A stretch of DNA of 64,000 bases from contig BROI01000002.1 of assembly GCA_027923505.1 (NCBI GenBank), positions 1,674,001 through 1,738,000 on the forward strand, given 5' to 3'. A model generated the notes under the pieces. It was not told the origin of the DNA and made no database searches. It was given only the letters and a program-made list of their open reading frames with translations. Position 1 is the first letter of the stretch. Each line of letters starts with the position of its first letter. This stretch comes from Mayamaea pseudoterrestris. Its lineage: Eukaryota. The translations under genes were made by a program, and so were the position numbers. Positions 5,473 through 53,764 of the stretch are shown here, in pieces.

Positions 5473-5704
5473 GCCACCTCCAGAACTTTGAAAAGTATGT
5501 AAACTTATGTTTAATTATTTTTTGTTTAATGCGATGTGTCATTTTGTCTACCTGTATGCAATTCTGTACCGTTGTTGGCCCATGACTCGAGGCGCCATGG
5601 GCAAGGAGTGCTAGCTAGCGAGTACCAGTGAGATGCTAAAACCGCTATGACGCGTATTTTCCAAGAGTGCGTGAATCTCTCACATCCATTTCCACAAAAC
5701 AGCC

Positions 5705-34104: not shown

Positions 34105-37100
34105 TTATAAGATATGCACTTGCTTCCTCTTTTGCTTAGAAGCCGCAACTCGTTCCTCGGAGTTTACCCACCGGCCAATGGCTTTCAGAACCTCATCCAC
34201 AATCAGAATTGGTGCAGCCCATGCCATGACGGTGACCCAGTCATCAATTGTTAAAGGCACCATGCCGAAGCTAGCACCAAGACCTGGCAAGCCAAATCTA
34301 GAGCTGTACATGACAAACAAATGCAAAAGCACCGGCCCTGTCACTCCCGCTAGCAACCATTTGTTTTCAAGTGGCCCGACACGAAACAGGGAGTTGTCAA
34401 CTGATACTGCAGACAATGCCTTGAGCATTTCCATAGCCACCAGCGCAGAAAGTGACAAGGTTTGTGGCAACAAGCGACCCGCACCTTGAAACAGCTCGGT
34501 ACACGATGCGACGCCTTCGCCTGGCGTCCAAAACTCACCGCACTGGCTCCACGACGCCAGTTGACTTATGGAGATGCCTTGTGAAAGGTAGTGCTGCGCA
34601 AATATACCAATTGTAGCGAGACCAACGTATAACCCAGTGATGCAATACCGCGTCAACAGCCATTTCGTCATTATGGGTTCGTCGCTTGGCCGAGGAGGCT
34701 GCTCCATCAAGTCCGGTGCTGCTGGATTGAACCCAAGTGCTGTCGCGGGTGGTCCATCCGTCACAAGATTGACCCACAGCAAGTGCATTGCAGTGAGAGG
34801 CTCCGGGAAACCAGCGAGGGTCGCAAAGAAAATGGCGCAAATCTCCCCAATGTTACAGCTAATGAGGAAGCAGATAAATGCCTGCATGTTGGCGTAAATG
34901 CGCCTTCCTTCCTCAACAGCATTAACAATGGTAGAGAAATTATCGTCTGCAAGAACCATGTCTGCGGCTTCCTTGGCAACTTCGGTACCTGTAATTCCCA
35001 TGGCAATGCCCAGGTTGGCCTGCGAGAGTGCGGGCGCGTCATTCACGCCATCGCCTGTCATGGCAGTTATCTCGCCAAGCTTTTGAAGCATTTTCACTAG
35101 CTTTTGCTTGTCGGCAGGCTCAGCCCGACAAAAGACAATGTTGTCTTCCCGCAACAATGACAGCTGCTCATGCTGCGGCAAATTGAAGAATTCTCGGCCT
35201 TCGAATGCCTTGATTGGCTTGTCAGAATCTGCCGGCGGAAGGATATTCACATCGCGAGCAATGGCAACCGCTGTTGCCTTGGCGTCGCCAGTGATCATCA
35301 TGACGCGAATGCCTGCCTTGCTGCACAGATTTATGCTGGCTGCCACTTCCGGTCGGGCAGGGTCCTTTATTCCAACGACTCCTACAAGCGTCAGACCACT
35401 TTCGACGTCTCGATATGCCGATGACTTGGACAGTAAAGGATGTTTAGCAATCGCATTTTCGTCGTCACTAGGTTTCAATTTGCGCAGAGATTCCTCTAGC
35501 GTCCCAGTGTTCTTAATTGCCAGCGCGAGGCATCGCAAAGGACGCGCCGCCATGTCGGCCACCATGGCCTCAATAGATCGACGCAGTGACGGCGACATCT
35601 TGGTCACTGTTCCGTCGCGAAACTTAACATGCGTACATCGCTCTAGCAGCAGGTTTGGCGCTCCTTTCACCAGCAACTTGTTCTCAAACTTGCGCGGCTT
35701 GACACCGTCACGCATTCCAACAGGTGCATTGCCCTGCGGAAAGGCGCAAAGAACCGACATGCTCTTGCGATCACGGTTAAATTCTAGCGTAGCTATACGC
35801 GGATGCAAGTCTCTCCAAGAATTGACGTTCGCCGAAGCCAGTACACTCCGGGGAATATCGATATGCAGGCCTGTTTCATCGACTCGTCCGCTGTCGATAA
35901 ATCGTGACATGCCGCCGAGCTTCTCAACTAACACGCACAAGGCTGCCTCGGTTGGCTCGCCGACACGTTCAAACGACTTGCTGTGCTCTTCTTTCTTCTT
36001 GTTTCGATATTCCTTTTCGTGTTCATCGCTAGCAATATCCTTACCAATAATTTTGGCGTCATTGCACAAGGCGCAAACAGCCGCAATATCTGCAACCGAC
36101 CCGAGTGGGTGCTGCTCCAACTCTTTGTTGCGCGCAACACCATCAATCGTTCCCATTGGAGAATACGAAAAGCCCTCAACGAAGTGCTCTCGCACCGATT
36201 CGCGTCCTCCAGCCTTGTTTTCCCGTTCTAACAAGCCCAAACTTACAACTGTCATTTCATTGGTTGTCAAAGTCCCCGTCTTGTCCGTGCAAATGACACT
36301 TGTGCATCCAAGAGTTTCAACACTTTGCAGCTTGCGAACAATGACGTTTCGCTCGGCCATGCGTCGCGTGCCAAGGCTCAAGCAAAGCGTAATCACAGCG
36401 GGCAAGCCTTCGGGAATGGCTGCCACACCCAGCGCGACGGCAACCTTTGCGTAATAAATTCCACCCTCCCAAACGGATCGAAACGATGGATCATTCATCT
36501 TTGGAATACTTGCAATCCATACCGATAGGCAAATGACGCCAATAATTATTGTCAGTGTTTCTCCAAATTCATCAAGCTTGATTGCTAATGGCGTCTTGAC
36601 TTGCTCGGCCTGCGCCATTGTGACTCCCTTTTGAATGCGACCCATTTGTGTTTCCATGCCGGTTTGTACGACCAGCGCAACTGCCGTACCGCTCGTCACC
36701 ATTGTTCCGCTGTAACAAAAGAACACAAAACAAAAAGTGAGTCAAAGCATTACGATGCTGCTCGTCCCCTAGCTGCAAGGACGTTCCTATTCCTCCAGCA
36801 ACCTGCTCGTCTACTTACCTATACAACATGCCAGTTTGATCCTGAATGGGAGCGTCCAGCTGCTGGAGCGTTCCAGAGTCGCCCGCCAGTTTACCAACCG
36901 TCACGGACTCACCCGTCAAACTGCCCTGGTCCACCTGCAGGTTGCTACCTTGGAGTGAAACGATGCGAGCATCGGCTGGAACGCGCTGGCCGACGCGAAC
37001 GCGAATCACATCGCCTGGCACCAAGCAAGCAGCAGTGACGGATGGAGCCCCGTCTGCATTGTCATTGCCGCCATCCAATGATGTTGCCGTCCGACTCTGC

Positions 37101-37840
37101 ATCCATATTCCATCTCGCAACACTTCCACGACGGATCCACTCGCCTGCAAGTCTTGCAGCGCCTCGAGTGAATCGTTCGCCGACCGCGTCTGCCACACGC
37201 CAACGCTAGCGTTCAGTACTAAAATGGCTAGTATGACAATGGGCTCGACAAAGGCGGATAGTAGCGAGGTTGCTTCGTCGTGCGACTGCTGCATGAGCTC
37301 CACGTAGGAAAAGATTCCCGACAAGGCGGCGACTAATAACAAGATTTGAACGAGGCGGTCGTCAAACTGCCGCGCAATCAGCTTCCATATGGATGTTTTG
37401 GGTGGCTTGGACAGCGAGTTTGATCCAAAGACTGATAGTCGAGCTTGAGCTTGCTCTGTTGACAATCCAGTAGTTGGAGATGACTTGAGCAATTCCCATA
37501 GTGAATCCATGGAGATTGATCCTGCCGAAATGGACGACGAATTGTAATCGGATCGAGGGAGTAGCAAGTGTTCAGGCAACGACGAATCTAGGGAAACTTC
37601 TTCTTCTCCTGCTGCTGCTGCTGCTGCTGCTACTGAATTAGTTACTTGATTTTCTGCTGTCTTCATTCCAAGATTGCTGCCGCTGCTCCTCGCCATATCA
37701 TTCCTCTCGTGCAGGACCGTCTTGGAGACTCTCCAGGTGCGTCGGTCAAACGCCAGTCGGCGAGGAAGCGCCAAGGCTGCTGCGGGAATGAATGCCATGT
37801 AGAAACATAGTAGCAATGGAACGTAGCGTGGTTTCTGCAT
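34105..37840 (-). CDS. P2A (SERCA-type) Ca2+-transporting P-type ATPase; intron 36710-36818
   Basis: LTGES, AAIPEGLP, DKTGTLT, KGAP, MITGD, TGDGVNDAPAL, LWVNLVTDG; splice restores MLYSGTMV. Confidence 0.95.
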
Positions 37841-39097
37841 GGCTATCTTTTGTTTAGCTTGTTTGATCTGGCCTAAGACCTTTGACGAGGATATCCATGG
37901 TCGAAAAAGTGGAAAGCAACACTTGTCACGCGTTTTCGCGGTGATGGCAGGGTTGTCGTAGCGGTTATGTGTCCAACCGGTGCGACGTAAGATTTCGATT
38001 ATTTGCGGCGCGGGGTTGCACCGTAGGATTTAGGATTCATTCCAAGTCAACTTTCACCATGCAGCTAGCGTCAAAGCAGGATGAGAGAGGCGTCGCTGTT
38101 GACGGACGCGACTTCAGTCTCTAGTCTCGCAATGACGACGCTAGTCGAGAGACTGATAGCAAGCTCTCCGCATCATTCTCACCAGATGCACGAGTGCCCT
38201 TCGTCTAGTTCCGCAGCTCGTCAACCACGCATGAAAGGACGACTGCTTCAGCAAGGATGACGACAAGCAGCGAGACATGACTGCCGTCTTTGACCAAAGC
38301 ATTGGAGTTTTGACTCTGTGTCGTTTGGCTGGGACTAATGCCAGCCGGCACAGGGCACAGGACACAGGAGTAGTTGATTGTTGTAGCTTCGTTGCGAGTT
38401 GGAAGCACTGCCAATTGGACTCTGATTCCCGTTTCTGTTTCTATTGCAAGCTTTCCCCGCATTTTTATGTTACCATGAAATGTGGAAACGTCGTGTTCGT
38501 CCCCACACCACACAGCGGTTACTATGGAAGGGGTTGTCTATGTCGATTGTGTTGATGGATCTTGGAATAGTAAGTTAGAGTTTGGTCGGAACGACTCGTT
38601 ACAGAGGTGCAACCCTCACCTAAACGTCATGTTAAATGAGTGCAGGAATTACGAATTTGTATACATGGGACGACACTGTCAGCACTCAATCCTCGCCCAA
38701 ACCTGCTGTTGGCCGCAGTTATGGCAGCCTTTTGGTGCTTCACAAGGATGAAAACAAAGATGTTTACGTGTGCATCTAATGTCAAAAAGAGGCCTTTCTT
38801 TTTCGACTGGTTGTTGAGCGCCTCAGGTAGTTACTTAAAAGGAGAAGAATGATGCTACTGAGCCTTAACCTTTCCTTTTGGCAGACATTGTACAAGGCAA
38901 CACCTAATCACCATACATAATACCTTCTACTTACCTTGCTGACAGAGAAATACCACAGGTATAGAAAGTATCTTATTCCTTACTCAACGATACCGCATCT
39001 TATGTACATAAGTGCATCATGCTAATGGTTGTGCACATCAGCGTAGCTGCGCACGCAAATGTCACGCTTTATATAGAGCAGCTACTCTCATTGTGCC

Positions 39098-39216
39098 AGC
39101 AAGGACCATACAGCGCTGACAGCACCGCATCCCGTCTGCTCTGCGAAGTTAAGCAGCGCCTGGCCTGGTTAGTACTACGGTGGGGGACCACGTTGGAATC
39201 CCAGGTGTTCTTGTTT
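39098..39216 (+). rRNA. 5S rRNA gene (single copy in window)
   Basis: ~119 nt; terminal helix agcaaggac/gttcttgtt; ccatac, gcaccgcatcccgtctgctctgcgaagttaagc, ttagtact..tggg..gacc..gaa; T-run terminator downstream; TATA-like tttatata ~25-30 nt upstream. Confidence 0.9.
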
Positions 39217-39244
39217 TATTTTTATAGTAGTAAATAAATACAAT

Positions 39245-39303
39245 ACCACAATGGAATCCCAGGTGTTCCTGTTTTGTTTTTAATAGTAGTAAATAAATAC
39301 AAT
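39245..39303 (+). repeat. tandem duplicate of the 5S 3' end and terminator
   Basis: copy of 39187-39244 (accac..tggaatcccaggtgttc..tagtagtaaataaatacaat). Confidence 0.9.
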
Positions 39304-39330
39304 AGGTAGACATAATATTATATGAATATT

Positions 39331-39376
39331 ATGACATCTGCTGGGCTGGTGACAAGTTATCACCTGTCACATTGCA
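39331..39376 (-). repeat. inverted fragment of the 169-bp satellite monomer
   Basis: reverse complement tgcaatgtgacaggtgataacttgtcaccagcccagcagatg matches the dyad region of the diverged monomers (40667-40711). Confidence 0.75.
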
Positions 39377-39395
39377 AGTGATGAGGTTAAATTAC

Positions 39396-39523
39396 TGTAG
39401 TGGCAAGCACAAGAGTATTGTGCAAAGCATGTTCATCAAGAGCTGTACAGATTGTGGCCAAGGACCCTGTATCGGAGGTTTTTTGAGGTAAGACGTTGAC
39501 TGTGCAAGCATCAATGGAGTTTA
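39396..39523 (+). mobile_element. decayed LTR fragment of the same Copia family, inverted relative to the intact element
   Basis: catcaagagctgtacagattgtggccaaggaccctgtatcggaggttttttgaggtaagacgttgactg is the near-exact reverse complement of about 43541-43608; similarity extends to the LTR terminus. Confidence 0.9.
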
Positions 39524-39845
39524 AGGCCATACCACTTTTGTAGGATTCCAAGGAGTCCTTTCTGCACCATTTAAGACTTTGCACTTGTCTGTAGCACACC
39601 CTGGATTGGTTTTGCCTGACTCATTGGGTTGTTGAGTGGCCAGGGTCTGGGGTGTTTAACTGGTATGACTCCAAAACTTGCTTTGGTGGCCAATTCCACA
39701 GTGTAGGCCACACATATGGTGTAGGGCTTTACGGAAGTCCTTTTTGCACCATTTGAGACTTGGCACATGTCCATGGCAAACCCTGGATAGGTTTTGCCTG
39801 AGTCATTGGGTGGTTGTGTGACCAGGGCATGGGGTGTTTGACTGG
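39524..39845. repeat. ~182-bp satellite, about 1.8 copies (left block)
   Basis: ccctgga at 39599 and 39781; same family and strand as 53257-53586. Confidence 0.9.
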
Positions 39846-40568
39846 ACCAACCAGCTTAAATGGTGTCTCTGCGGTTGCTAGGCATGACTAAAAGATGTAA
39901 TGTGCAATCCATACAATCATATACATTTAAACCCTCCAGGAAAAATGATGGGGGTTGGGCTTAATTTGATGGTGGCTGGCAGGCAGCATGGTAATTGTCA
40001 TTGCCATCTTGATAGTAATGCTTTTGCCAGTATACAACCATGGTCCAAACAAAGACTGCGGCATAGAGACTAAAGGCCAAAACGTTCAACTAATTCAAGC
40101 GATTCAGCGTTGGCCTTTGATTGCTTTGTTGACTCCACAAGCTATGGTGGTGATGCAAACTAGTAGGAGGCGGAGCAAGCAATTGACTCCATCTGCATCA
40201 TTATCAAGTTGAATACTGTTATGGCTGTTGTCTGCATTGTCATCTAGAGCATTGCTATGCATCACAGCTGCTGGCGTCAAAAAAGGAAAGAGCAGGCATA
40301 TCCATGAAGATAAATCTGATGGAAGTGATTGCTGCTCATCCTCTTACGCATTTTCAATTTCTTGCATGGTTTCTTGAGCGTCTAGAAACTCTCATTCTTC
40401 GTGTCCTTCAGCATGAGTACTACTCATCAAGTATTTGTACCAAAATAACTCGGATCCTTCCAGATAGGAGTGCAAAAGCCATAGCCAAATCACGTCAAGC
40501 AAAATTAAACATCACCGCAACAACATATTAAAAAGTACTGCTGAGCCATGGCAGCATATTCGTGAGTT

Positions 40569-43520
40569 CATACTTGAGCCATGCGTATGCCTAAATCAAG
40601 CCAGAATGGTGCTAACATCCATATTTCAGGCGCACTACAAGATGACAAGCTAGTGTCTCCATAGACTGCAATGTGACTGGTGACAACTTGTAACCAGTCT
40701 CAGCCAGCAGATAAAGTGATTTTCAAATGCCCATACCTTGAGCCATGTGTATGCCCAAATTAAGCCAGAATGGTGCTAACATCCTTATTTCAGGTGCGCT
40801 ACAAGATGGATTGCCTGGCTGGCCCCTCAGTTTACTGCAAAGTGACTGGTGATAACTTGTCACCAGTCTCAGTCAGCAGCTGCTATGCCTTTCAATGAGC
40901 CATGTGTATGACCAATACAAGCCAGAATGATGCTTACATTTTAGTTTAAGGTGTGATACAAGATGCATTGCCTGGCTGGTGCCTCCAGGGACTACAATGT
41001 GATTGGTGACAATTTGTCACCAGACTCAGTCAGCTGATGCCTTAACATTCAAACCAGAAAGGTGCCAACATCTTTTTTTGGCTTCGCTACATGATGGTAT
41101 GCCTGGATGGTGTTTCAGGGGACTGTGATGTAATTGGTGACAACTTGTCACCAGTCTCAGCCAGCTGATGCCTTGACATTTAAACCTCCCTACACCAAGC
41201 CCTGTAGGTGACCAAATTACACCAAAATGGTGCCACCATCATTATTCAGGCTGCGCTACAAGATGGTTTGCCTGGCTGGTGTCTCAGGGGATGGCAATGT
41301 ATTTGGTGACAACTTGTCACCAGTCTCATCGCGCAATGCTGTGACATTCAAACACCCCTACAGCAGACCTTGTAGGTGCCCAAATTACACCAGAGTGGTG
41401 CCAACATCATTATTCAAGGCTGCGCTACAAAATGTTATGCCTGGCTGGTGTCTCAGGGGATGGCAATGTATTTGGTGACAACTTGTCACCAGTCTCATCC
41501 CGCACGTGCCGTGACATTCAAACGCCCCTACAGCAAGCCCTGTAGGTGCCCGAATTACACCAGAATGGTGCCAACATCATTATTCAGGCTGCGCTACAAG
41601 ATGGTATGCCTGGCTGGTGTCTCAGGGGATGGCAATGTATTTGGTGACATTTTGTCACCAGTCTCATCCCGCAATGCCGTGACATTCAAACGCCCCTACA
41701 GCAAGCCCTGTAGGTGCCCAAATTACACCAGAATGGTGCCACCATCATTATTCAGGTTGCGCTACAAGATGGTATGCCTGGCTGGTGTCTCAGGGGATGG
41801 CAATGTATTTGGTGACAACTTGTCACCAGTCTCAGCCGCACATGCCATGACATTCAAATGCCCCTACAGCAAGCCCTGTAGGTGCCCAAATTACACCAGA
41901 ATGGTGCCACCATCATTATTCAGGTTGCGCTACAAGATGGTATGCCTGGCTGGTGTCTCAGGGGATGGCAATGTATTTGGTGACAACTTGTCACCAGTCT
42001 CGTCCCGCAATGCCGTGACATTCAAACGCCTCTACAGCAAGCCCTGTAGGTGCCCGAATTACACCAGAATGGTGCCAACATCATTATTCAGGCTGCGCTA
42101 CAAGATGGTAGGCTTGGCTGGTGTCTCAGGGGATGGCAATGTATTTGGTGACAACTTGTCACCAGTCTCAGCCCACAGGTGCCGTGACATTCAAACGCCC
42201 CTACAGCAGACCTTGTAGGTGCCCAAATTACACCAGAATGGTGCCAACATTATTATTCAGGCTGCGCTACAAGATGGTATGCCTGGCTGGTGTCTCAGGG
42301 GATGGCAATGCATTTGGTGACAACTTGTCACCAGTCTCAGCCTGCACATGCCATGGCATTCAAACGCCCCTACAGCAAGCCCTGTAGGTGCCCAAATTAC
42401 ACCAGAATGGTGCCAACGTCATTATTCAGGCTGCGCTACAAGATGGTATGACAGGCTGGTGTCTCAGGGGATGGCAATGTATTTGGTGACAACTTGTCAC
42501 CAGTCGCAGCCGCACATGCCATGACATTCAAATGCTCCTACAGCAAGCCCTGTAGGTGCCCAAATTACACCAGAATGGTGCCAGCATCATTATTCAGGCT
42601 GCGCTACAAGATGGTAGGCTTGGCTGGTGTCTCAGGGGATGGCAATGTATTTGGTGACAACTTGTCACCAGTCTCAGCCCACAGGTGCCGTGACATTCAA
42701 ACGCCCCTACAGCTGACCTTGTAGGTGCCCAAATTACACCAGAATGGTGCCACCATCATTTTTCAGGCTGCGCTACAAGATGGTATACCTGGCTGGTGTC
42801 TCAGGGGATTGCAATGTATTTGGTGACAACTTGTCACCAGTCTCAGCCCGCAATGCCGTGACATTCAAACGCCTCTACAGCAGACCTTGTAGGTGCCCAA
42901 ATTACACCAGAATGGTGACAACATTATTGTTCAGGCTGCGCTACAAGGTGGTAGGCTTGGCTGGTGTCTCAGGGGATGGCAATGTATTTGGTGACAACTT
43001 GTCACTAGTCTCATCTCGCAATGCCATGACTTTCAAACGCCTCTACAGCAAGCCCTGTAGGAGCCCAAATTACACTAGAATGGTGACAACATCATTTTTC
43101 AGGCTGTACTACAAGATGGTAGGCTTGGCTGGTGTCTCAGGGGATGGTAATGCATTTGGTGACAACTTGTCACCAGTCTCAGCCCACAGGTGCCATGACA
43201 TTCAAACGCCCCTACAGCAAGCCTTGTAGGTGCCCAATTACAACAGAATGGTGCCAACATCATTATGCAGGCTGGGCTACAAGATGGTATGCCTGGCTGG
43301 TGTCTCAGGGGATGGCAATGTATTTGGTGACAACTTGTCACCAGTCTCAGCCCGCACGTGCCATGACATTCAAACGCCCCTACAGCAAGCCCTGTAGGTG
43401 CCCCAGTTACACCAGAATGGTGCCAACATCATTATTCAGGCTGCGCTACAAGATGGTAGGCTTGGCTGGTGTCTCAGGGGATGGCAATGTATTTGGTGAC
43501 AACTTGTCACCAGTCTCAGC
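40569..43520 (+). repeat. 168/169-bp tandem satellite, left arm (~18 monomers, first ~4 diverged)
   Basis: gtctcagggg at 41281, 41450, 41619, 41787, 41955, 42123, 42292, 42461, 42629, 42798, 42966, 43134, 43302, 43471. Confidence 0.98.
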
Positions 43521-43915
43521 TAACACCGTTGACGATTTCGCAGTCAACGTCTTACCTCCAAAAAGCTCCGATACAGGGTCCTTGGCCACGGTCTGTACAG
43601 CTCTTGATGGAGATGGCTCGTGGAATAGTCTTGCGCTCGCCACTACACGAATACGACTGCACTCTCGTCGCAAACTAGTAGTTCTATATTGTGAGCTTAT
43701 CGCTACATCGCTACATCGACCACTCGGAAGATCATCCGATCAATCCGTTTCTTTCAATCACATTACATCAGTCGTAACTGGTCGTTCCATTCATACAACG
43801 CATCCACACGACGGTTGCGCACTTTCTTCATTCACATGTCACATACGACAGCTGCGGACTCGACACAAGCTAATTAGGGTTCGGGCTCTTGACTTCGCCG
43901 CTCTGCGACTTGTCA
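43521..43915 (-). repeat. 3' LTR (395 bp)
   Basis: identical to 49841-50235 except 3 substitutions by my comparison. Confidence 0.97.
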
Positions 43916-46900
43916 CTCCCCTCGGGTACGCTGCTGGTCGTAGCCGCATTCTTGTCCTTCACAATCGCATACGATGTATCGCCGCGCCAAAACAATACTG
44001 GCTTGAGCAATGGCATCGCATCACAGTACGGCAGGTACTTCGTCAGTACGTCCGCAATGTTCTCCTTTCCGTCAATCTTTACAAACTTGATAATCCCCGC
44101 AGCAACTGCCCAACGGACACGATGGTAGGCCAACGCATTGTGTCGCTTGGACAATGTCGAACTCGGGATTGTAGATTGCGTAATCACTGCTTGGTTGTCT
44201 CCGTACATCCAGGCAGACTTCTCCAATGGTACGCCCATAGCCATGAGCGACGCACGTAGAGAAATGCTGATATCCGTTCCACTCTTTGCTACGCCGAATT
44301 CCGATCCAAAGGTCGCAGTCTCGACTGTAGCCTGGAGTTTGCAATGCCAGTCGACAGGCGTCTGGTTGACAAATGACAAAACTCCTTCCAATGACTTGCC
44401 TGTCACCATGCAATGCATGAGACACGCATCCTCGAAAGTTGATGTTCGTACAGTCACACCCTTTGGTGGTGGGTAGACGTCCAACATCTCATCAACTCCG
44501 TCCTTCCCGTAAACGCTGCGCTCCCAATCTTGTTCCTCCATGGTGCCAAAGTGCTCCTCGTTTGCTGGCCACTTCGTACGGAAACGGATTGCTGCGTCCG
44601 GTAACTCTCGCAAATATCCACAGACTCGCTTCACCCGCTGCAGGTGTCCCTTGCGCGGCTCCACACGGAATCGCGACAGACTCACAACTGCTACGGCAAT
44701 GTCAAATCGACCCAAAGTAATTGCCCACTGAAGTGCTCCGACTAGAGACTGGTAAATCTTCTTCTCTTGGTCGTTCAGTAGCTCGCTTTGGTCAAGTTCG
44801 GGATGATCGTCTTTGTCGATTGGTGATGAGTACTTCTTCGGAGGACCTTCAAACAAACGCTCGTACTGCGCCAAGAGTTTCGCAACGTATGTCTTGGCCG
44901 ACCAGTAAAGAGTTCCGTCAGGGTCTCGTCCAAAGTCACCGCCGAGATGATACTCGGGATGTCCAACACCTTTGAGCTTAAACTTGTACTTCTCCTCTAG
45001 CATCTTGAAGAACGCTGCTGGATCGTCTGAAATATTTAACAGATCGTCGACCCATACACAGAGGTAGTCGTAGCTGTCGCCGGCGTCCTTGATCCACAGA
45101 TCGGAATCGCAATAGGACGGTTTCCATCCTTCCGCAAGTAGGGCGTCGGCTAAGCGTTCGTGAAATCGTGCTCCGCTCGTTCGCAATCCGTACAAAGCCT
45201 TGACGATGACCAGGATGTGTCCTTCGCGCTCCCCGAACTCGGGGCCTCCAACGAAGTATACCTTCTCCTTGGTGAACGCTTCGAGATAAGCATTCCCAAT
45301 GTCACCGACCATGCACTTCTTGCCGTTCGCTTCTCCAATGACGAGAGCTAGACGCATTGCCTTCAATGAGATAACACTGGAGTAGGCATCGTCGTTGTCT
45401 TTCGTCATGTGGCCGCCTGCAACGAGACGTGCCTTGTATCGCAAATCGTGCTTGACATCGTACACAAAATGGACTCGGATCTTCTGATAACCAGTTGGTG
45501 GTGTTGTGGTGGAACTCGGACCAAGATCTTGAAACGTCTCGTACTCGTCCAGGTTCGCAAGCTCCACGCCTTCCGCATCCGTCCACTTCGTGTGCCCTGC
45601 AGCTTCCTGCAAACGTCGCGCTTCCTTCCAATCTCGGGGTACTTGGACTCCAAACTTGTAGCGCGGTCCGTTCTTTTGCTGCTCCATTCGGGCGGTCGCC
45701 ACCTTGCGCGCAACCTTCTTGGCGTTCCGGGCCCATCGGTTCAACGATGACCATCCGTCCTTGTCGAGAAGATTATGCTTTTGCGCGTAGGCTGCCACTG
45801 ATACTTTGTCGCTTTCGATCATCGCGTTGAGAGGCTCCCAAGTCTTGGATCCATCGTCCCATTGTACAAGGACGTTCCACTTGGAATGCTTCCAGTTCTT
45901 CGACTTGCTCGTCAGCGGACCCTGATGGTCTAGAATCTCCTTGAAGAACCATTTACGCTCAGGATTCGCCATGTCTTGGTTCACTTCGGCCTCGTAGAGA
46001 TCGGAAACCTCGACATAGGACATAACTTCATCCGCTTCGCCGTTACCAAGTTTCAGCATCATTTTAATGTTCTGATGGTTCTGGGCGTCGCGATTGTTCA
46101 GCTTGCTCATGACGGTCGCTCGAACTTCTTGTCCGTCGTCCGTCTTCATGAGAAACGACTTGCCGATAAGTTCATTGGGTGCATACTTCGGGAGTTTGCG
46201 CCACGGATTGATGTTCTTCTTCTTTGGCTTGTCGTTGTCGTCATTGGCAGGGTCGTCATCGGCAGGATTAGGATCTAGCTCCCCGTCGGTCATATCGTCA
46301 TCTTCCGGGTATTCCACCGTCTCGACCAAAGGGGTATCGTCTTCGTCAGGAATGAAAGAATCTTCGTCTCTGCTGTCGGTGTCGGTAATCTTCTTGATCA
46401 TTTCCGGCATAAGGATCTCGCCACCTAGACCAGGTACGGTATAGAGACGCGGCTCCCCTTCTTTCATGACGGGGGAAGCAGGTGCCGGTACGCGAAGGTT
46501 CAAAAATTTTGGGTCATTTTGGGGTAAGCAAACCGATCGCGTCATGATCTCGTGGGTCTCGCAATCACAGATGAAGTACGTCAGGTCGTCTCCGCACGTC
46601 GTGTTGGGACCAAGCCAGTACGCCGCGCGCTGGCGGGTACCCGGGGCCTCGACATCCTTGACAAAGTAGTTGACAATTTCAAACCAACAAAAATGCAAAT
46701 ACTTTGACACGTCGGGGACTTGCCCAGTGATAAACTCGATGGGAGACTTGCCGTCCAAGGCAGGATGCGACAAATGACGGTACATCTCGGTCTGGAAGAG
46801 TAAAGCGCGTAGCCAGAAGCATGCCGGAGTGCCTGTTCGGTCCATAAGCCGTTCATGACTTTCCTTGACGTGCCCAATGATGCGCTCGGCTGGGTTTTGA

Positions 46901-49743
46901 TTCTGATAGTACGGCTCCGATGTATGACGACGGCGAATCATGAACTCGCGCATTACTTCGTCAAACTCGGCACTCATCGCTTCTTTCGCATTATCCGAGA
47001 AGACTTCCAACGGAGCTCCAAACTCGCGGATGAAATCACGGAATCGTTTCGGTACGTCACCTTTCGTCCGCATGGGATACACGACAATGATCTGACTGCA
47101 ACAACCATAGAATAGCTGCACGCATGTGCACCCTGCATGTCCGTCGATATGGTCATCCATGGCAGGTTCGTCGAAGAACATGGTGTCATGGGCCACTCGA
47201 TCATCTAGACGGTAGACGTTCAGGAATCGGCTCTTTCGATGCATTCGTGGGGGGTATTGGCGCTCGTGCATGTTGAACTGCGTGCTATGGCGCAAAGTAT
47301 CCTTGATCGTCTGCGCCGGGTACCATGCAAAGTTCGGCAGCAATGCGTCGATATCAGGTTTCTTTGGCAGGATAGACTTGTAGGGCTGATAGACGAGATC
47401 CGCATTGTACTTCTGTACGACGGCACAAACATTCAGCTCCTTCTCGGTGTAAACAGGTTGATTGTCGTGTCCGAGATTCGTATAAGTCACGTTGCTTTGA
47501 CGATGGGTGCGATTCCGCGTACGCGAGCGTGTCACGCGCGTGAAGCCCTCTTCGTCGTCACTGACTTCGTCGTCTTCGTCGCGCGACAACAAGTCCGGTA
47601 CGTCGTCCTCGTCGTCATCGTCATCCGAAGAGTCATAGTCGTCGTCCTCGGTCGGCTCGACGTCAAACTCGTTCGGATCCCAAGGCCCATCGAAGGTCAT
47701 CATGACCCGAGGTAAGGTGTGAAGCTCATGCACCGACACTGGAAACATTGGCAAGGTCGCCATGCCACTTTCCATTCCGAGCATAAACTTGTATCCATCT
47801 GGCGTTTCGATTCGTAACTTGCCACCAAAGTTGTAATGCTTATCGTTGACATGAAGTCCGAAGGCTTCCATCTGCATACTCGAATGAATCGTCTTGCCGG
47901 TTCCAGAATATGCGTAATTATGGAACTCGCCGACGACCCAACCCTTGGTGCTCTTAAGCTTAGCGACTGCCGTGACGGTAGACAGGTCCGGAAGCTTGAG
48001 ACCACCGACTCCAGTGACTTCAATCTTGTGGAACTTGTCCTCGGTAAGGATGCGGCCGTCCGCTCCCCATACTCCGCCACTCGCGCCGGGATCAACAGTC
48101 GACGCTGAATGCTTATCCAAGTCAATGCTCGCGACTTTGTACTTGCGACTCTGAGCAATATTTGCTCCCCGAGTCGTAGTCGTGGGCTGGTCTGGACCTA
48201 AGAAACTTCGCATCGCTGAGCCTCGGCTAGTGTTGTTCACACGTTCGGTCGCCACACTCGCCGTCGTCGCCGCTGATGAAGTGGCTGCGACGTTCGCGTT
48301 GCGTGTTGTACTCGTCGTTTGCGTGGTGCCTGCCTGTGTTGCTGATGTCGAACCACCTGCAGCACTGGCCGCTCGACTCGTACCACGGCGTTCAAACACT
48401 TCGTGTTGCTGATCGCGGGTAAGGAGTCGCCACGTGTTTGGTGGAATCGTCGCATTCACGTCGCTGGGAATTTCGATCGTCTTCGTGTCGGCATAGCTGC
48501 GAACATACGAGCGAGTATCTCCCCGACCGCGGCCGCCGCCGCCGCCTCGTCCCGTGCTCAAGTCGCCGTGACCACCGCCCCCCTGATTGGATTGCTGATT
48601 GTTGCTGCTACTTGGCGTAGACTGGGAATTGTTCGCGCTTGCCTTCTTCGTCTTCTCCTTCTCTTTCTTGGTTTGTTCAGATTGGTTCGCCTGGCGCTTC
48701 TCGGTCTCCTTGATGCCACGACGATTGTCAGATTGACGTGCGACGTCGTTCAGGAGGTTCCAAAACTGGGTGTACGTCATCGGGTTGCCGGTCTTGGACT
48801 CTTCGATCAGCGCCATGTTCACCGCCGATGCCATATCCGCATGGCGGAAAACCGCGCGCTCCAAAATCTGACGCTTCGTGCTTGCTGTAAGTAGCTCGGT
48901 TTCCTCGGCGTAGTCATTGTAGTTCTCTTCCTTGCTGGACCACTGGATAAGCCAATTGACGAGAGACTTGGCGTAACTCGCGTCGAGAGTGAAATTGCGC
49001 CATTCGTCTTCGGCCGAACGTAGATCCAACTTGCGCGCCATCCCGTCGAGGAATGTCGCCTCCAACTCTGCAATGCACGCTGAGGCATTCGCGCTGTCGA
49101 TGTGCTTGCGGACAATGAGCTTGCTCTGCGGTGTCTTGTAGGTATACTCTACGCCGCTAAAGCTTCGAACACTGATACTGATACTCGGCGAATTCGGGCT
49201 CGAGTGCAGCTGGTGCCTTGAACTCGTCGTCCCAAAAGTAGCCAAGTCGCTTCGCATGCGGTTCTTGAAGGCCCGCCAGTAGGAGCAGAACTTGCGATCG
49301 TTCTTGAGCTCCAGCATGGTCTTCAGATCCAGCTTGATGTCGTGTCGTTTCGTCGTGGTGTCGTTGCCTCCGATAACGCTGAAGTCTCCGAAACTGCGGT
49401 TGCCTGCGGTCGGTGACCCCGGTGCTGCTGGGAGGTCTCGGCTCGTAATGTGGTCTTTCTCCAGGTCTTGCCATTGCGCAGTCGTCCGACGTTGCTCGTG
49501 AATCCAACTCATGAGCTTGCGCAATCGGCTTGTTCGTATCGTCGACCACTGGTGCTGGGTCTTAATGTTCGTCACGTCTTGTTCCGACAGCTCGGCCATC
49601 GCCTCCGCAGTCGTGAGTTCCTCTTGCTCGAAACACACTGCGGTAGGGTCGTTTGGATCCCAAGTTGCGGATGCTGCGAGCCACGGAATGTCGAAGACTT
49701 TACCGACGGCACGCTTGTAGGTCGTTACATCAATTGTCGCCAT
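43870..49743 (-). CDS. Gag-Pol polyprotein: gag, aspartic protease, integrase, chromodomain, reverse transcriptase, RNase H
   Basis: VDPGASGG (PR); HDTMFF/SDNAKE/QNPAER (IN); EILDH..LVQWDDGSKTWEP (chromo); YKARLVAGG, GDIGNAYL, KALYGL, WVDD (RT); TFGSEF, GDNQAV, NIADVLTK (RH). Confidence 0.96.
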   Translation of the reverse strand: MATIDVTTYKRAVGKVFDIPWLAASATWDPNDPTAVCFEQEELTTAEAMAELSEQDVTNIKTQHQWSTIRTSRLRKLMSWIHEQRRTTAQWQDLEKDHITSRDLPAAPGSPTAGNRSFGDFSVIGGNDTTTKRHDIKLDLKTMLELKNDRKFCSYWRAFKNRMRSDLATFGTTSSRHQLHSSPNSPSISISVRSFSGVEYTYKTPQSKLIVRKHIDSANASACIAELEATFLDGMARKLDLRSAEDEWRNFTLDASYAKSLVNWLIQWSSKEENYNDYAEETELLTASTKRQILERAVFRHADMASAVNMALIEESKTGNPMTYTQFWNLLNDVARQSDNRRGIKETEKRQANQSEQTKKEKEKTKKASANNSQSTPSSSNNQQSNQGGGGHGDLSTGRGGGGGRGRGDTRSYVRSYADTKTIEIPSDVNATIPPNTWRLLTRDQQHEVFERRGTSRAASAAGGSTSATQAGTTQTTSTTRNANVAATSSAATTASVATERVNNTSRGSAMRSFLGPDQPTTTTRGANIAQSRKYKVASIDLDKHSASTVDPGASGGVWGADGRILTEDKFHKIEVTGVGGLKLPDLSTVTAVAKLKSTKGWVVGEFHNYAYSGTGKTIHSSMQMEAFGLHVNDKHYNFGGKLRIETPDGYKFMLGMESGMATLPMFPVSVHELHTLPRVMMTFDGPWDPNEFDVEPTEDDDYDSSDDDDDEDDVPDLLSRDEDDEVSDDEEGFTRVTRSRTRNRTHRQSNVTYTNLGHDNQPVYTEKELNVCAVVQKYNADLVYQPYKSILPKKPDIDALLPNFAWYPAQTIKDTLRHSTQFNMHERQYPPRMHRKSRFLNVYRLDDRVAHDTMFFDEPAMDDHIDGHAGCTCVQLFYGCCSQIIVVYPMRTKGDVPKRFRDFIREFGAPLEVFSDNAKEAMSAEFDEVMREFMIRRRHTSEPYYQNQNPAERIIGHVKESHERLMDRTGTPACFWLRALLFQTEMYRHLSHPALDGKSPIEFITGQVPDVSKYLHFCWFEIVNYFVKDVEAPGTRQRAAYWLGPNTTCGDDLTYFICDCETHEIMTRSVCLPQNDPKFLNLRVPAPASPVMKEGEPRLYTVPGLGGEILMPEMIKKITDTDSRDEDSFIPDEDDTPLVETVEYPEDDDMTDGELDPNPADDDPANDDNDKPKKKNINPWRKLPKYAPNELIGKSFLMKTDDGQEVRATVMSKLNNRDAQNHQNIKMMLKLGNGEADEVMSYVEVSDLYEAEVNQDMANPERKWFFKEILDHQGPLTSKSKNWKHSKWNVLVQWDDGSKTWEPLNAMIESDKVSVAAYAQKHNLLDKDGWSSLNRWARNAKKVARKVATARMEQQKNGPRYKFGVQVPRDWKEARRLQEAAGHTKWTDAEGVELANLDEYETFQDLGPSSTTTPPTGYQKIRVHFVYDVKHDLRYKARLVAGGHMTKDNDDAYSSVISLKAMRLALVIGEANGKKCMVGDIGNAYLEAFTKEKVYFVGGPEFGEREGHILVIVKALYGLRTSGARFHERLADALLAEGWKPSYCDSDLWIKDAGDSYDYLCVWVDDLLNISDDPAAFFKMLEEKYKFKLKGVGHPEYHLGGDFGRDPDGTLYWSAKTYVAKLLAQYERLFEGPPKKYSSPIDKDDHPELDQSELLNDQEKKIYQSLVGALQWAITLGRFDIAVAVVSLSRFRVEPRKGHLQRVKRVCGYLRELPDAAIRFRTKWPANEEHFGTMEEQDWERSVYGKDGVDEMLDVYPPPKGVTVRTSTFEDACLMHCMVTGKSLEGVLSFVNQTPVDWHCKLQATVETATFGSEFGVAKSGTDISISLRASLMAMGVPLEKSAWMYGDNQAVITQSTIPSSTLSKRHNALAYHRVRWAVAAGIIKFVKIDGKENIADVLTKYLPYCDAMPLLKPVLFWRGDTSYAIVKDKNAATTSSVPEGSDKSQSGEVKSPNPN

Positions 49744-49840
49744 GGTGGAGGTTGATCAGAGGAATCGGACTCGCTGCAGACGAATGTGTCACGATAGCTC
49801 CCTCGCTCGTTCTTGCTCTCGAAGCACTGAAATGTTAATC

Positions 49841-50235
49841 TAACACCGTTGACAATTTCGCAGTCAACGTCTTACCTCCAAAAAGCTCCGATACAGGGTC
49901 CTTGGCCACGGTCTGTACAGCTCTTGATGGAGATGGCTCGTGGAATAGTCTTGCGCTCGCCACTACATGAATACGACTGCACTCTCGTCGCAAACTAGTA
50001 GTTCTATATTGTGAGCTTATCGCTACATCGCTACATCGACCACTCGGAAGATCATCCGATCAATCCGTTTCTTTCAATCACATTACATCAGTCGTAACTG
50101 GTCGTTCCATTCATACAACGCATCCACACGACGGTTGCGCACTTTCTTCATTCACATGTCACATACGACAGCTGAGGACTCGACACAAGCTAATTAGGGT
50201 TCGGGCTCTTGACTTCGCCGCTCTGCGACTTGTCA
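49841..50235 (-). repeat. 5' LTR (395 bp)
   Basis: direct repeat of 43521-43915. Confidence 0.97.
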
Positions 50236-53200
50236 TCAGCCCGCACGTGCCATGACATTCAAACGCCCCTACAGCAAGCCCTGTAGGTGCCCAAATTACA
50301 CCAGAATGGTGCCAACATCATTGTTTAGGCTGCGCTACAAGATGGTATGCCTGGCTGGTGTCTCAGGGAATGGCAATGTATTTGGTGACAACTTATCACC
50401 AGTCTCAGCCCGCAAGTGCCATGACATTCTAACGCCCCTACAGCAAGCCCTGTAGGTGCCCAAATTACACCAGAATGGTGCCAACATCATTAATCAGGCT
50501 GCGCTACAAGATGGTATACCTGGCTGGTGTCTCAGGGGATGGCAATGCATTTCGTGACAACTTGTCACCAGTCTCAGCCTGCACGTGCCATGACATTCAA
50601 ACGCCCCTACAGCAAGCCCTGTAGGTGCCCAAATTACACCAGAATGGTGCCAACATCATTATTCAGGCTGCGCTACAAGATGGTATGCCTGGCTGGTGTC
50701 TCAGGGGATGGCAATGTATTTGGTGACAACTTGTCACCAGTCTCAGCCAGCACATGCCATGACATTCAAACGCCCCTACAGCAAGCCCTGTAGGTGCCCA
50801 AATTACACCAGAATGGTGCCACCATCATTATTCAGGTTGCGCTACAAGATGGTATGCCTGGCTGGTGTCTCAGGGGATGGCAATGTATTTGGTGACAACT
50901 TGTCACCAGTCTCATCCCGCAATGCCGTGACATTCAAATGCCTCTACAGCAAGCCCTGTAGGTGCCCAAATTACACCAGAATGGTGACAACATCATTATT
51001 CAGGCTGCGCTACAAGATGGTATGCCTGGCTGGTGTCTCAGGGGATGGCAATGCATTTGGTGACAACTTGTCACCAGTCTCAGCCGCACATGCCATGACA
51101 TTCAAATGCCCCTACAGCAAGCCCTGTAGGTGCCCAAATTACACCAGAATGGTGCCAACATCATTATTCAGGTTGCGCTACAAGATGGTATGCCTGGCTG
51201 GTGTCTCAGGGGATGGCAATGTATTTGGTGACAACTTGTCACCAGTCTCAGCTGCACATGCCATGACATTCAAATGCCCCTACAGCAAGCCCTGTAGGTG
51301 CCCAAATTTCACCAGAATGGTGCCAACATCATTATTCAGGCTGCGCTACAAGATGGTATGCCTGGCTGGTGGCTCAGGGGATGGCAATGTATTTGGTGAC
51401 AACTTGTCACCAGTCTCAGCCAGCACATGCCATGACATTCAAATGCCCCTACAGCAAGCCCTGTAGGTGCCCAAATTTCACCAGAATGGTGCCAACATCA
51501 TTATTCAGGCTGCGCTACAAGATGGTATGCCTGGCTGGTGGCTCAGGGGATGGCAATGTATTTGGTGACAACTTGTCACCAGTCTCAGCCAGCACATGCC
51601 ATGACATTCAAACGCCCCTACAGCAAGCCCTGTAGGTGCCCAAATTACACCAGAATGGTGCCACCATCATTATTCAGGTTGCGCTACAAGATGGTATGCC
51701 TGGCTGGTGTCTCAGGGGATGGCAATGTATTTGGTGACAACTTGTCACCAGTCTCATCCCGCAATGCCGTGACATTCAAACGCCTCTACAGCAAGCCCTG
51801 TAGGTGCCCAAATTTCACCAGAATGGTGCCAACATCATTATTCAGGCTGCGCTACAAGATGGTATGCCTGGCTGGTGGCTCAGGGGATGGCAATGTATTT
51901 GGTGACAACTTGTCACCAGTCTCAGCCAGCACATGCCATGACATTCAAACGCCCCTACAGCAAGCCCTGTAGGTGCCCAAATTACACCAGAATGGTGCCT
52001 ACTTCATTATTTAGGCTGAGCTACAAGATGGTATGCCTGGCTGGTGTCTCAGGGGATGGCAATGTATGTGGTGACAACTTGTCACCAGTCTCAGCCCACA
52101 CATGCCATGACATTCAAACGCCCCTACAGCAAGCCCTGTAGGTGCCCAAATTACTCCAGAATGGTGCCAACATCATGATTTAGGCTGCGCTACAAGATGG
52201 TATACCTGGCTGGTGTCTCAGGGAATGGCAATGTATTTGGTGACAACTTGTCACCAGTCTCAGCCCACAGATGCCATGACATTCAAACGCCCCTACATCA
52301 GGCCCTGTAGGTGCCCGAATTCCACCAGAATGGTACCAACATCATTTTTCAGGTTGCGCTACAAGATGGTAGGCTTGGCTGGTGTCTCAGGGGACTGCAA
52401 TGTGATTGGTGACAACTTGTCACCAGCCTCAGCCAGCTCAACCTTGACATTCAAACGCCCCTACAGCAAGCCATGTATACACCCAAATTACACGAGAAAG
52501 GCCTTAACATCATTGTTTGGGCTGCGCTACAAGATGGTATGCCTGGCTGGTGTCTCAGGGGACTGCTATGTGATTGGTGACAACTTGTCACCTGTCTCAG
52601 CCAGCTGATGCCTTGACATTCAAACGCCCCTACAGCAAGCCCTGTATATACCCAAATTACACCAGAATGGTGCCAACATCATTATTCAGGCTGCACTATA
52701 AGATGGTAGGCTTGGCTGGTGTACCAGGGGATGGCAATGTAATTGGTGACAACTTGTCACCAGTCTCAGCCCGCATATGCCGTGATATTCAAACGCACCT
52801 ACAGCAAGCCCTGTAGGTGCCCAAATTACACCAGAATGGTGGCAACATCATTATTCAGGCTGCGCTACAAGATGGTAGGCTTGGCTGGTGTCTCAGGGGA
52901 TGGCAATGTATTTGGTGACAACTTGTCACCAGTCTCAGCCAGCACATGCCATGACATTCAAACGCCCCTATAGCAAGCCCTGTAGGTGCCTAAATTACTC
53001 CAGAATGTTGCCAACATCATTATTTGGGCTGCGCTACAAGATGGTTGGCTTGGCTGGTGTCTCAGGGGATGGCAATGTATTTGGTGACAACTTGTCACCA
53101 GTCTCAGACCGCAGATGCCGTGACATTCAAATGCACCATACAGCAAGCCCTGTAGGTGCCCAAATTACTCCAGAATGGTGCCAACATTATTATTCAGGCT

Positions 53201-53247
53201 GCGCTACAAGATGGTTTGTCTGGCTGGTGTCTAAGGGGACTGCAATG
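50236..53247 (+). repeat. 168/169-bp tandem satellite, right arm (~18 monomers)
   Basis: the monomer resumes in register after the TSD; more diverged copies toward 52300-52800 and the end. Confidence 0.98.
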
Positions 53248-53256
53248 AGATGTGTC

Positions 53257-53586
53257 GTTGAGTGGCCATGGCATGGGGCATTTGACTGGTATGAATCCAA
53301 AACGTGGCCATTCCCACAGTGTAGGCCATACCAATGGTGTAGTGCTTCCAGGCAGTCCGTTTTGCACCATTTATGACTTTGCACATGTCTACGGCACACC
53401 CTGGACAGGTTTTGCCCGACTCATTGGGTGGTTGAGTGGCCTGGGCATGGGGCATTTGACTGGTATGAATCCAAAACTGCCGGAGGTTGCCATTCCCACA
53501 GTGTAGACCATACCAATGTTGTAGGGCTTCCAGGCAGTCCTTTTTGCACCTATTGAGACTTTGCACATGTCCATGGCACGCCGTGG
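53257..53586. repeat. ~182-bp satellite, about 1.8 copies (right block)
   Basis: cattcccacagtgtag at 53309 and 53491; aligns with 39524-39845. Confidence 0.9.
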
Positions 53587-53764
53587 ACATGCAGCTACGC
53601 GTACGACGTACCGGTACAGCGCTAAAAAAATGTCGCGGCAAGTAACGATGCGACTCGAATCTTTAGCTTTCCATGCATGCGTTCGACTGGCTCGCAACGA
53701 TGTGGTCATCTGCCGCTTTGCTTCAGTCGTTTCAGTTTTCCCTCCTTTTCGTAATCATAACATA

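Follow-up and report, generated by a model that had tools for sequence, protein, structure and literature searches.

Chromoviruses are Ty3/gypsy retrotransposons that carry a chromodomain in their integrase and reside in heterochromatin; Gao et al. (2008) are said to have dealt with elements of this kind. For the diatom copia lineages CoDi-A and CoDi-I, a putative chromodomain at the integrase C terminus is the reported mark (PMC2774666; PMC5348765), and this independently acquired domain was singled out in 2009 as one that "merits further attention" (PMC2774666). As far as the accessible parts of the reports extend (Llorens et al. 2009, PMC2774666; Ustyantsev et al. 2017, PMC5348765; Maumus et al. 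2009, PMC2806351), these elements have in common with the family studied here, family A, a copia reverse transcriptase (RT), LTRs with a short target-site duplication (TSD), a putative integrase C-terminal chromodomain, and flank-swapping recombination between copies. Insertion-site evidence for a role of the CoDi chromodomain was found neither in those parts nor in any other report in the literature searched, and what the present genome adds to the same texts is enrichment in satellite, a phase within the monomer, and a control that lacks the module. The termini of family A (TG...TA) also differ from the TG/CA given in the accessible text of Maumus et al. for 23 of 26 families (PMC2806351).

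The centrophilic copia Tal1/ALE4 of Arabidopsis (Tsukahara et al. 2025, PMC11735389) shares with family A, according to the accessible part of that report, an enrichment in a nucleosome-sized tandem repeat and a 5-bp TSD, and the Tal1 integrase C-terminal region is the proposed determinant. New Tal1 insertions were confined to CENH3-bearing repeats and depended on an R/K residue, whereas family A has about one-third of its sites in satellite, a chromo fold, and target arrays dispersed over many contigs. That part gives no position within the monomer for Tal1. A literature search that covered few subscription papers returned no report of retrotransposon hot spots within satellite monomers and, at the level of titles, none on retrotransposon targeting of a diatom satellite; the term "satellite" is absent from PMC8147415. 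Chromodomain copia and satellite-loving retrotransposons are already known, and within the searched literature the monomer hot spots described here appear to be new.

The window, that is, the whole 64-kb stretch of DNA analyzed (C2:1674001-1738000, from an assembly of 30.6 Mb in 41 contigs), is gene-dense eukaryotic DNA, taken to come from a diatom in view of its CoDi-type elements. Between genes lies a 14-kb island made up of a 182-bp repeat, arrays of a 169-bp repeat, and an intact copia element (Table 1). Its left neighbor (34105-38029, minus strand) is a P-type ATPase-like gene, SERCA-like by its motifs, and what is presumably a Yip1-like gene starts just past 53589. Alignment showed that the 182-bp repeat is a weak, colinear homologue of the 169-bp repeat in reverse, and that the stretch at 39524-39845 is 81 to 82% identical, in the same orientation, to the 182-bp array at 53251-53589. 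The CpG observed/expected ratio (o/e) was 0.05 to 0.43 in the island, 1.39 in the young LTR, and 1.09 to 1.10 in the genic DNA of the window. Depletion of the island around an undepleted young LTR is consistent with methylation of repeats at CG sites; in Phaeodactylum, according to the accessible part of PMC9998398, such methylation requires DNMT5 and overlaps with H3K9me2/3 and H3K27me3. Across the genome, arrays of the 169-bp repeat occur several to a contig, the one on C1 spanning at least 17 kb, in a dispersed layout rather than as one block per chromosome; related repeats have periods of 181 bp and about 350 bp.

Table 1. Coordinates of the features of the satellite island, as positions within the window
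Feature	Position	Strand	Remark
Decayed 169-type satellite piece with palindrome	39321..39395	-	Zero CpG remaining
Old truncated LTR end, TA terminus, element sense +	39396..39523	+	83% to young LTR
182-bp satellite	39524..39845	- (169-homologous sense)	Adjoins LTR TA end, monomer position ~116
CpG-depleted repeated DNA, type unassigned	39846..40570	.	Partial copy on contig C26 (L185)
Diverged, shortened satellite monomers (~157 bp), array edge	40570..41052	+	
169-bp satellite array, 14.7 copies	41053..43520	+	Final 5 bp = TSD TCAGC
3' LTR of intact copia (TG...TA)	43521..43915	-	
Uninterrupted gag-pol frame of 1961 aa between stops, with copia-type RT (PF07727)	43870..49755	-	
Module between integrase core and RT: predicted Tudor/SH3-like barrel + chromo fold	45730..46200	-	
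5' LTR of intact copia	49841..50235	-	3 differences vs 3' LTR
169-bp satellite array, 17.8 copies	50236..53247	+	Initial 5 bp = TSD TCAGC
182-bp satellite, inverted vs 169 array	53251..53589	-	

The intact Ty1/copia element occupies 43521-50235 on the minus strand and is bounded by 395-bp LTRs (TG...TA), which differ at 3 positions, and by the TSD TCAGC; paired LTRs with a TSD are a trait that it shares with CoDi-A and CoDi-I. The copia RT domain (PF07727) was found at residues 1416 to 1627 of the polyprotein with an E value of 8.7e-21. The Pfam search of the polyprotein returned no integrase match, and the integrase core upstream of the RT was recognized by eye, from its motifs. Judged on this domain architecture, the element would be placed as a CoDi-type copia. 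Among the families that carry the same module, family A ends in TG...TA (43521-50235), family B in TG...AA, and family C in TG...CA (loci L170; L182), and all three have GATTAAC beside the 5' LTR. The first 8 nucleotides of the family A LTR (TGACAAGT, 43908-43915) are identical to one reading of a 17-bp palindrome in the satellite; since family B does not have it, this match is probably due to chance.

The module is a 157-residue segment between the integrase core and the RT, with 1304 relatives at an E value of 0.001 or better. Its fold, predicted from 82 sequences, had a pLDDT of 92. In this predicted structure, residues 81 to 146 resemble the chromo folds of HP1, Chd1, Rhino, Chp1, and others (Z up to 7.0), the best match having an rmsd of 1.9 over 53 residues, and the nine best matches all align residues ~80 to 150 to chromo, chromoshadow, or chromodomain-bearing chains (Z of 6.2 to 7.0). 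Residues 5 to 73 resemble Tudor/SH3 barrels (Z up to 6.2). All of these Z-scores are moderate, below 8; Foldseek gave no match to the model at an E value of 0.001 or better (best, 6.5e-3), and no chromodomain was found by sequence in Pfam and PDB searches. The model accordingly predicts a chromodomain at the integrase C terminus at a moderate level of similarity. By comparison with the HP1 motif, W84 would occupy the first site of the aromatic cage, W114, which is invariant across the 82 sequences, is present, and the third site is Gly, so that two of the three cage aromatics (W84 and W114) appear to be present in the model. By analogy, family A most likely works like the chromoviruses, with which it would share a chromodomain-fused integrase and residence in heterochromatin, although it belongs to another superfamily (RT of the PF07727 type, integrase before RT) and an additional Tudor/SH3-like barrel is predicted ahead of its chromo fold. 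An integrase tail of this composition would tether the integration complex to heterochromatic nucleosomes.

The family was represented by 94 LTR copies in 90 loci, obtained from LTR searches and flanks of the assembly. These provided 86 host junctions, 32 of which lie directly in the 169-bp repeat. Junctions were collapsed into distinct sites by dropping five LTR-LTR joints, merging matching TSDs, and counting each monomer position and orientation once, a conservative procedure given that position 4 alone holds five junctions. The resulting 57 sites, a count in which one wrong merge (two CGTCT sites) and one probable split offset each other, comprised 18 in the 169-bp repeat, 2 in the 182-bp repeat, 6 nested in the family itself, and 31 elsewhere. 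A 20-mer of the 169-bp repeat had 7282 exact matches genome-wide, and the share of this repeat in the 30.6 Mb was put at 4.0%, at 5.0% when the detection rate in the window was applied, and at 6.7% on a pessimistic estimate; the 182-bp family (1695 matches) adds roughly 1 to 4%. Insertions in the 169-bp repeat exceeded its genome share 4.7- to 6.3-fold (P = 2e-8 to 2e-10), with 6.3-fold and P = 2e-10 at an assumed 5%. The excess was 3.5-fold (P = 3e-7) when both repeats together were assumed to make up 10% of the genome, 1.8-fold (P = 0.006) at a target of 20%, and not significant (P = 0.058) at 25%.

An earlier note on this DNA had taken the two LTR insertions in the window, both of the same polarity, as suggestive of a satellite-targeting retrotransposon. 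The idea of targeting stands as enrichment in the 169-bp repeat but not as exclusivity, since satellite accounts for 20 of the 57 sites and the majority (37/57) lie outside it; confinement to the tandem repeat, as in strict targeting of the Tal1 type, was not found. Because the 182-bp repeat is the reverse homologue of the 169-bp repeat, the orientation logic of the note was right, and alignment confirmed that both window insertions share polarity. Over the distinct insertions in the 169-bp repeat, however, orientations were divided 11:7 (P = 0.48), or 14:12 with family B included, which is random and rules out a fixed polarity, so the agreement between the two window events is a matter of chance. 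A satellite-specific element with fixed insertion polarity could draw on that agreement, on the enrichment, which is real, and on the 8-nucleotide match between LTR and palindrome, but it is hardly credible in view of the 11:7 division, the 37 sites outside satellite, and the use of the same positions by a family with unrelated LTR ends (see below).

As a genomic pattern, family A is concentrated in methylated repeat domains generally, and satellite is a large part of these. By-eye counting placed a TE match within 1 kb or a CpG o/e below 0.75 at 33 of 40 "other" flanks. Insertion could also have been random, with genic copies purged and the survivors accumulating in repeats; the gene density of the genome, the resemblance of those 33 flanks to repeat DNA, and the lack of significance when 25% of the genome is taken as tolerated target all suit such a history. 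All of the data are standing insertions, and selection and array turnover are therefore confounded in them. At two loci (L017 and L022; C2:2737431 and C34:138949), family A has also inserted into another CpG-depleted repeat, one unrelated to the 169- and 182-bp repeats. Matching TSDs were also observed on different contigs (C1:663353/C10:468662, C27:272754/C39:9384, C29:124111/C41:34292, and C2:2737036/C34:138950), as were many single elements with unmatched TSDs; the cross-contig matches reflect either recombination between copies or assembly switches.

Within the 169-bp monomer, numbered from the T of TCAGC after the palindrome, family A sites were found at positions 3, 4, 5, 16, 34, 37, 49, 131, 143, 159, and 169 in forward orientation and at 3, 5, 7, 11, 16, 37, and 143 in reverse. 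The 18 sites cluster in one arc (Rayleigh R of 0.70, reached in 0 of 20000 simulations, P < 5e-5), and positions 50 to 130 are free of them (P = 1.5e-4). Five of the seven reverse sites (3, 5, 16, 37, and 143) reuse a forward position (P = 5e-5). Junctions of opposite orientation cannot be copies of one event, and these positions are therefore true hot spots. Selection against genic copies explains neither this exact reuse nor the monomer phase, which argues against insertion without targeting. In the palindrome-less 182-bp repeat, sites mostly fall on the homologous arc (~12, 26, 131, 142, and 144), one further row mapping to 109 by an ambiguous alignment. A 10.5-bp nucleosomal rhythm was at most suggestive and fell short of significance (P = 0.07 for family A and 0.15 for families A and B). 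The target-site consensus was weak: a weight matrix from 82 nonsatellite junctions held only 0.5 bit, and its prediction of the monomer positions in use was not significant (P = 0.085).

Family A is probably a chromodomain copia of the CoDi type that is directed to heterochromatin, where phased chromatin would determine the hot spots. If nucleosomes, or a protein that binds the palindrome, were in phase with the 169-bp unit, only part of each monomer would be exposed; at 147 + 22 bp the unit is nucleosome sized, and the hot zone could be linker or dyad. Alternatively, certain positions might be good integrase substrates by virtue of their sequence or DNA shape (the 17-bp palindrome or bendability), an effect that thousands of monomers would amplify without any reading of chromatin. 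Such a preference would agree with a hot zone (159-16) that starts in the palindrome and follows it and with the sharing of positions by both orientations, as predicted for a symmetric site preference, and a weak palindrome preference is given in the accessible text of Jedlicka et al. 2019 (PMC6911290). We nevertheless regard it as unlikely, given the failure of the 82-junction matrix, the homologous arc in a repeat that has no palindrome, and the CpG-depleted setting of the nonsatellite sites, which it leaves unexplained. The target looks like methylated repeat domains combined with positional hot spots within the monomer, and not like satellite sequence used with fixed polarity.

Other copia families were found by a PF07727 search. 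Family B has a polyprotein 37% identical to that of family A, an unrelated LTR, and the same module. Sampling at 75 loci, short of all 108 LTR ends, gave 77 host junctions and about 60 sites, 11 of which are in satellite, a modest enrichment (P = 0.003 at an assumed 7%, 0.034 at 10%, and 0.28 at 15%). Its sites in the 169-bp repeat are 3, 9, 10, 13, 114, 130, 143, and 164; five of the eight lie inside the 27-bp zone that family A had delimited (P = 0.004), positions 3 and 143 are reused from family A, and two (114 and 130) fall within the stretch that is empty in family A. In family C, the 182-bp repeat accounted for 1 of 10 junctions. In families where the module profile finds nothing, only 1 of 31 intact ends lay in satellite by a hand tally (Fisher test, P = 5e-4 against family A with 20/57, 0.053 against B, and 0.003 against A and B together). 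Copies of the module-bearing families, as standing insertions, are thus concentrated in satellite beyond their module-free relatives. As these relatives are under the same selection, the contrast weakens the account by purging alone, which, together with the hot spots, makes insertion without targeting very unlikely in our estimation.

The control families belong to a distant lineage (22 to 25% identity) and are set apart by more than the lack of the module, and four of their truncated copies adjoin 182-bp satellite (L189, L195, L197, and L204). Since the controls are few and distant and have these truncated copies, the association with the module is correlative. The pol of one module-free copia, L195, is split by some 680 bp of 182-type satellite (5663-6345, read on the minus strand), indicating that satellite DNA also moves into TEs. 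The genome amounts to a natural experiment, in which module-bearing families are satellite enriched and reuse monomer positions and module-free families are not enriched, and it makes both the function of the module and the arrangement of chromatin on an abundant diatom satellite accessible to testing. We propose only tentatively that at least two diatom chromodomain-copia families read phased nucleosomes on a megabase-scale, dispersed 169-bp satellite and integrate at fixed positions. If this were true, the insertion map would be a fossil chromatin footprint on a repeat that may be the centromeric one in this species, and direct genomic evidence that an independently acquired copia chromodomain is a targeting module.

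The older insertion in the window consists of an LTR fragment, of which 39396-39521 matches 43522-43647 on the opposite strand without gaps (105/126 identical, E value of 3e-33). It had been described as the first ~128 bp of the LTR; it is indeed a decayed inverted LTR copy, but in the sense strand it represents the last ~127 nucleotides, with the TA end. This end lies within 1 to 2 bp of the LTR terminus (TAAACTCC versus TAACACC). The surroundings given in the earlier note were borne out by alignment: the 182-bp satellite at 39524-39845 directly abuts the TA end, and an inverted 169-type piece with a palindrome lies on the other side (~39321-39386, minus strand), where 39346-39376 matches 40836-40866 at 29 of 31 positions. 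Of the words sampled from 38700-40500, fractions of 0.90 and 0.86 recur in two sequencing runs from two studies, one of which may be the source of the assembly; no RNA run was among those listed. The two insertion points do differ (position ~116 of the 169-bp monomer for the fragment and 3 for the intact element), and so do the ages, the fragment having 21 differences in 126 bp and 7 of 9 CpGs lost against 3 differences between the intact LTRs. Taken alone, the fragment is an unremarkable, decayed end of an LTR.

In the simplest history, an earlier copy of this CoDi-type copia family inserted here and only its TA end is left; the remainder of the older element would have been lost by later deletion and the remnant eroded by CpG methylation. 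It is quite unlikely, in our judgment, that the fragment is not an integration scar but LTR DNA patched in by repair or recombination at a 182/169 junction. In favor of a patch, the fragment has no TSD and marks a change of repeat type from 182 to 169, position ~116 is outside the main arc, and splicing of satellite and TE does occur in this genome, as in the satellite-interrupted pol of L195, which has CAGCCTCC at both borders. Against a patch stand the coincidence of one end with the LTR terminus (to 1 to 2 bp), the colinear satellite phase across the fragment (the left side ends at ~118 and the right extrapolates to ~118), and a family B insertion at position 114 that is defined by its TSD.

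An origin of the fragment in a multicopy composite unit was rejected, as a second copy of the junction was absent among the 40 of 94 candidates scored; none of these 40 was closer to the fragment than the young LTRs are (83 to 84%). A genome search with a 24-mer (up to 2 mismatches) gave 85 matches, all catalogued except C10:582216 and C7:331858, two further copies that stand outside the 94-copy catalogue, and it too brought up no closer relative of the fragment. A sister family with short LTRs that end at this base may be hinted at by one other copy ending at LTR position 127 (C3:1037487), but that copy is in indel-rich sequence. In the remnant at 39396 and in the one at this locus (L129), the LTR breaks off at position 127 behind CTACA, which also occurs in both satellite monomers.

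No tRNA gene was found in the 64-kb window. A complete single 5S rRNA gene (39098-39216, plus strand; Rfam, 101 bits) lies 115 bp from the island edge; behind it, its 3' end and terminator are duplicated over 58 bp (39187-39304).
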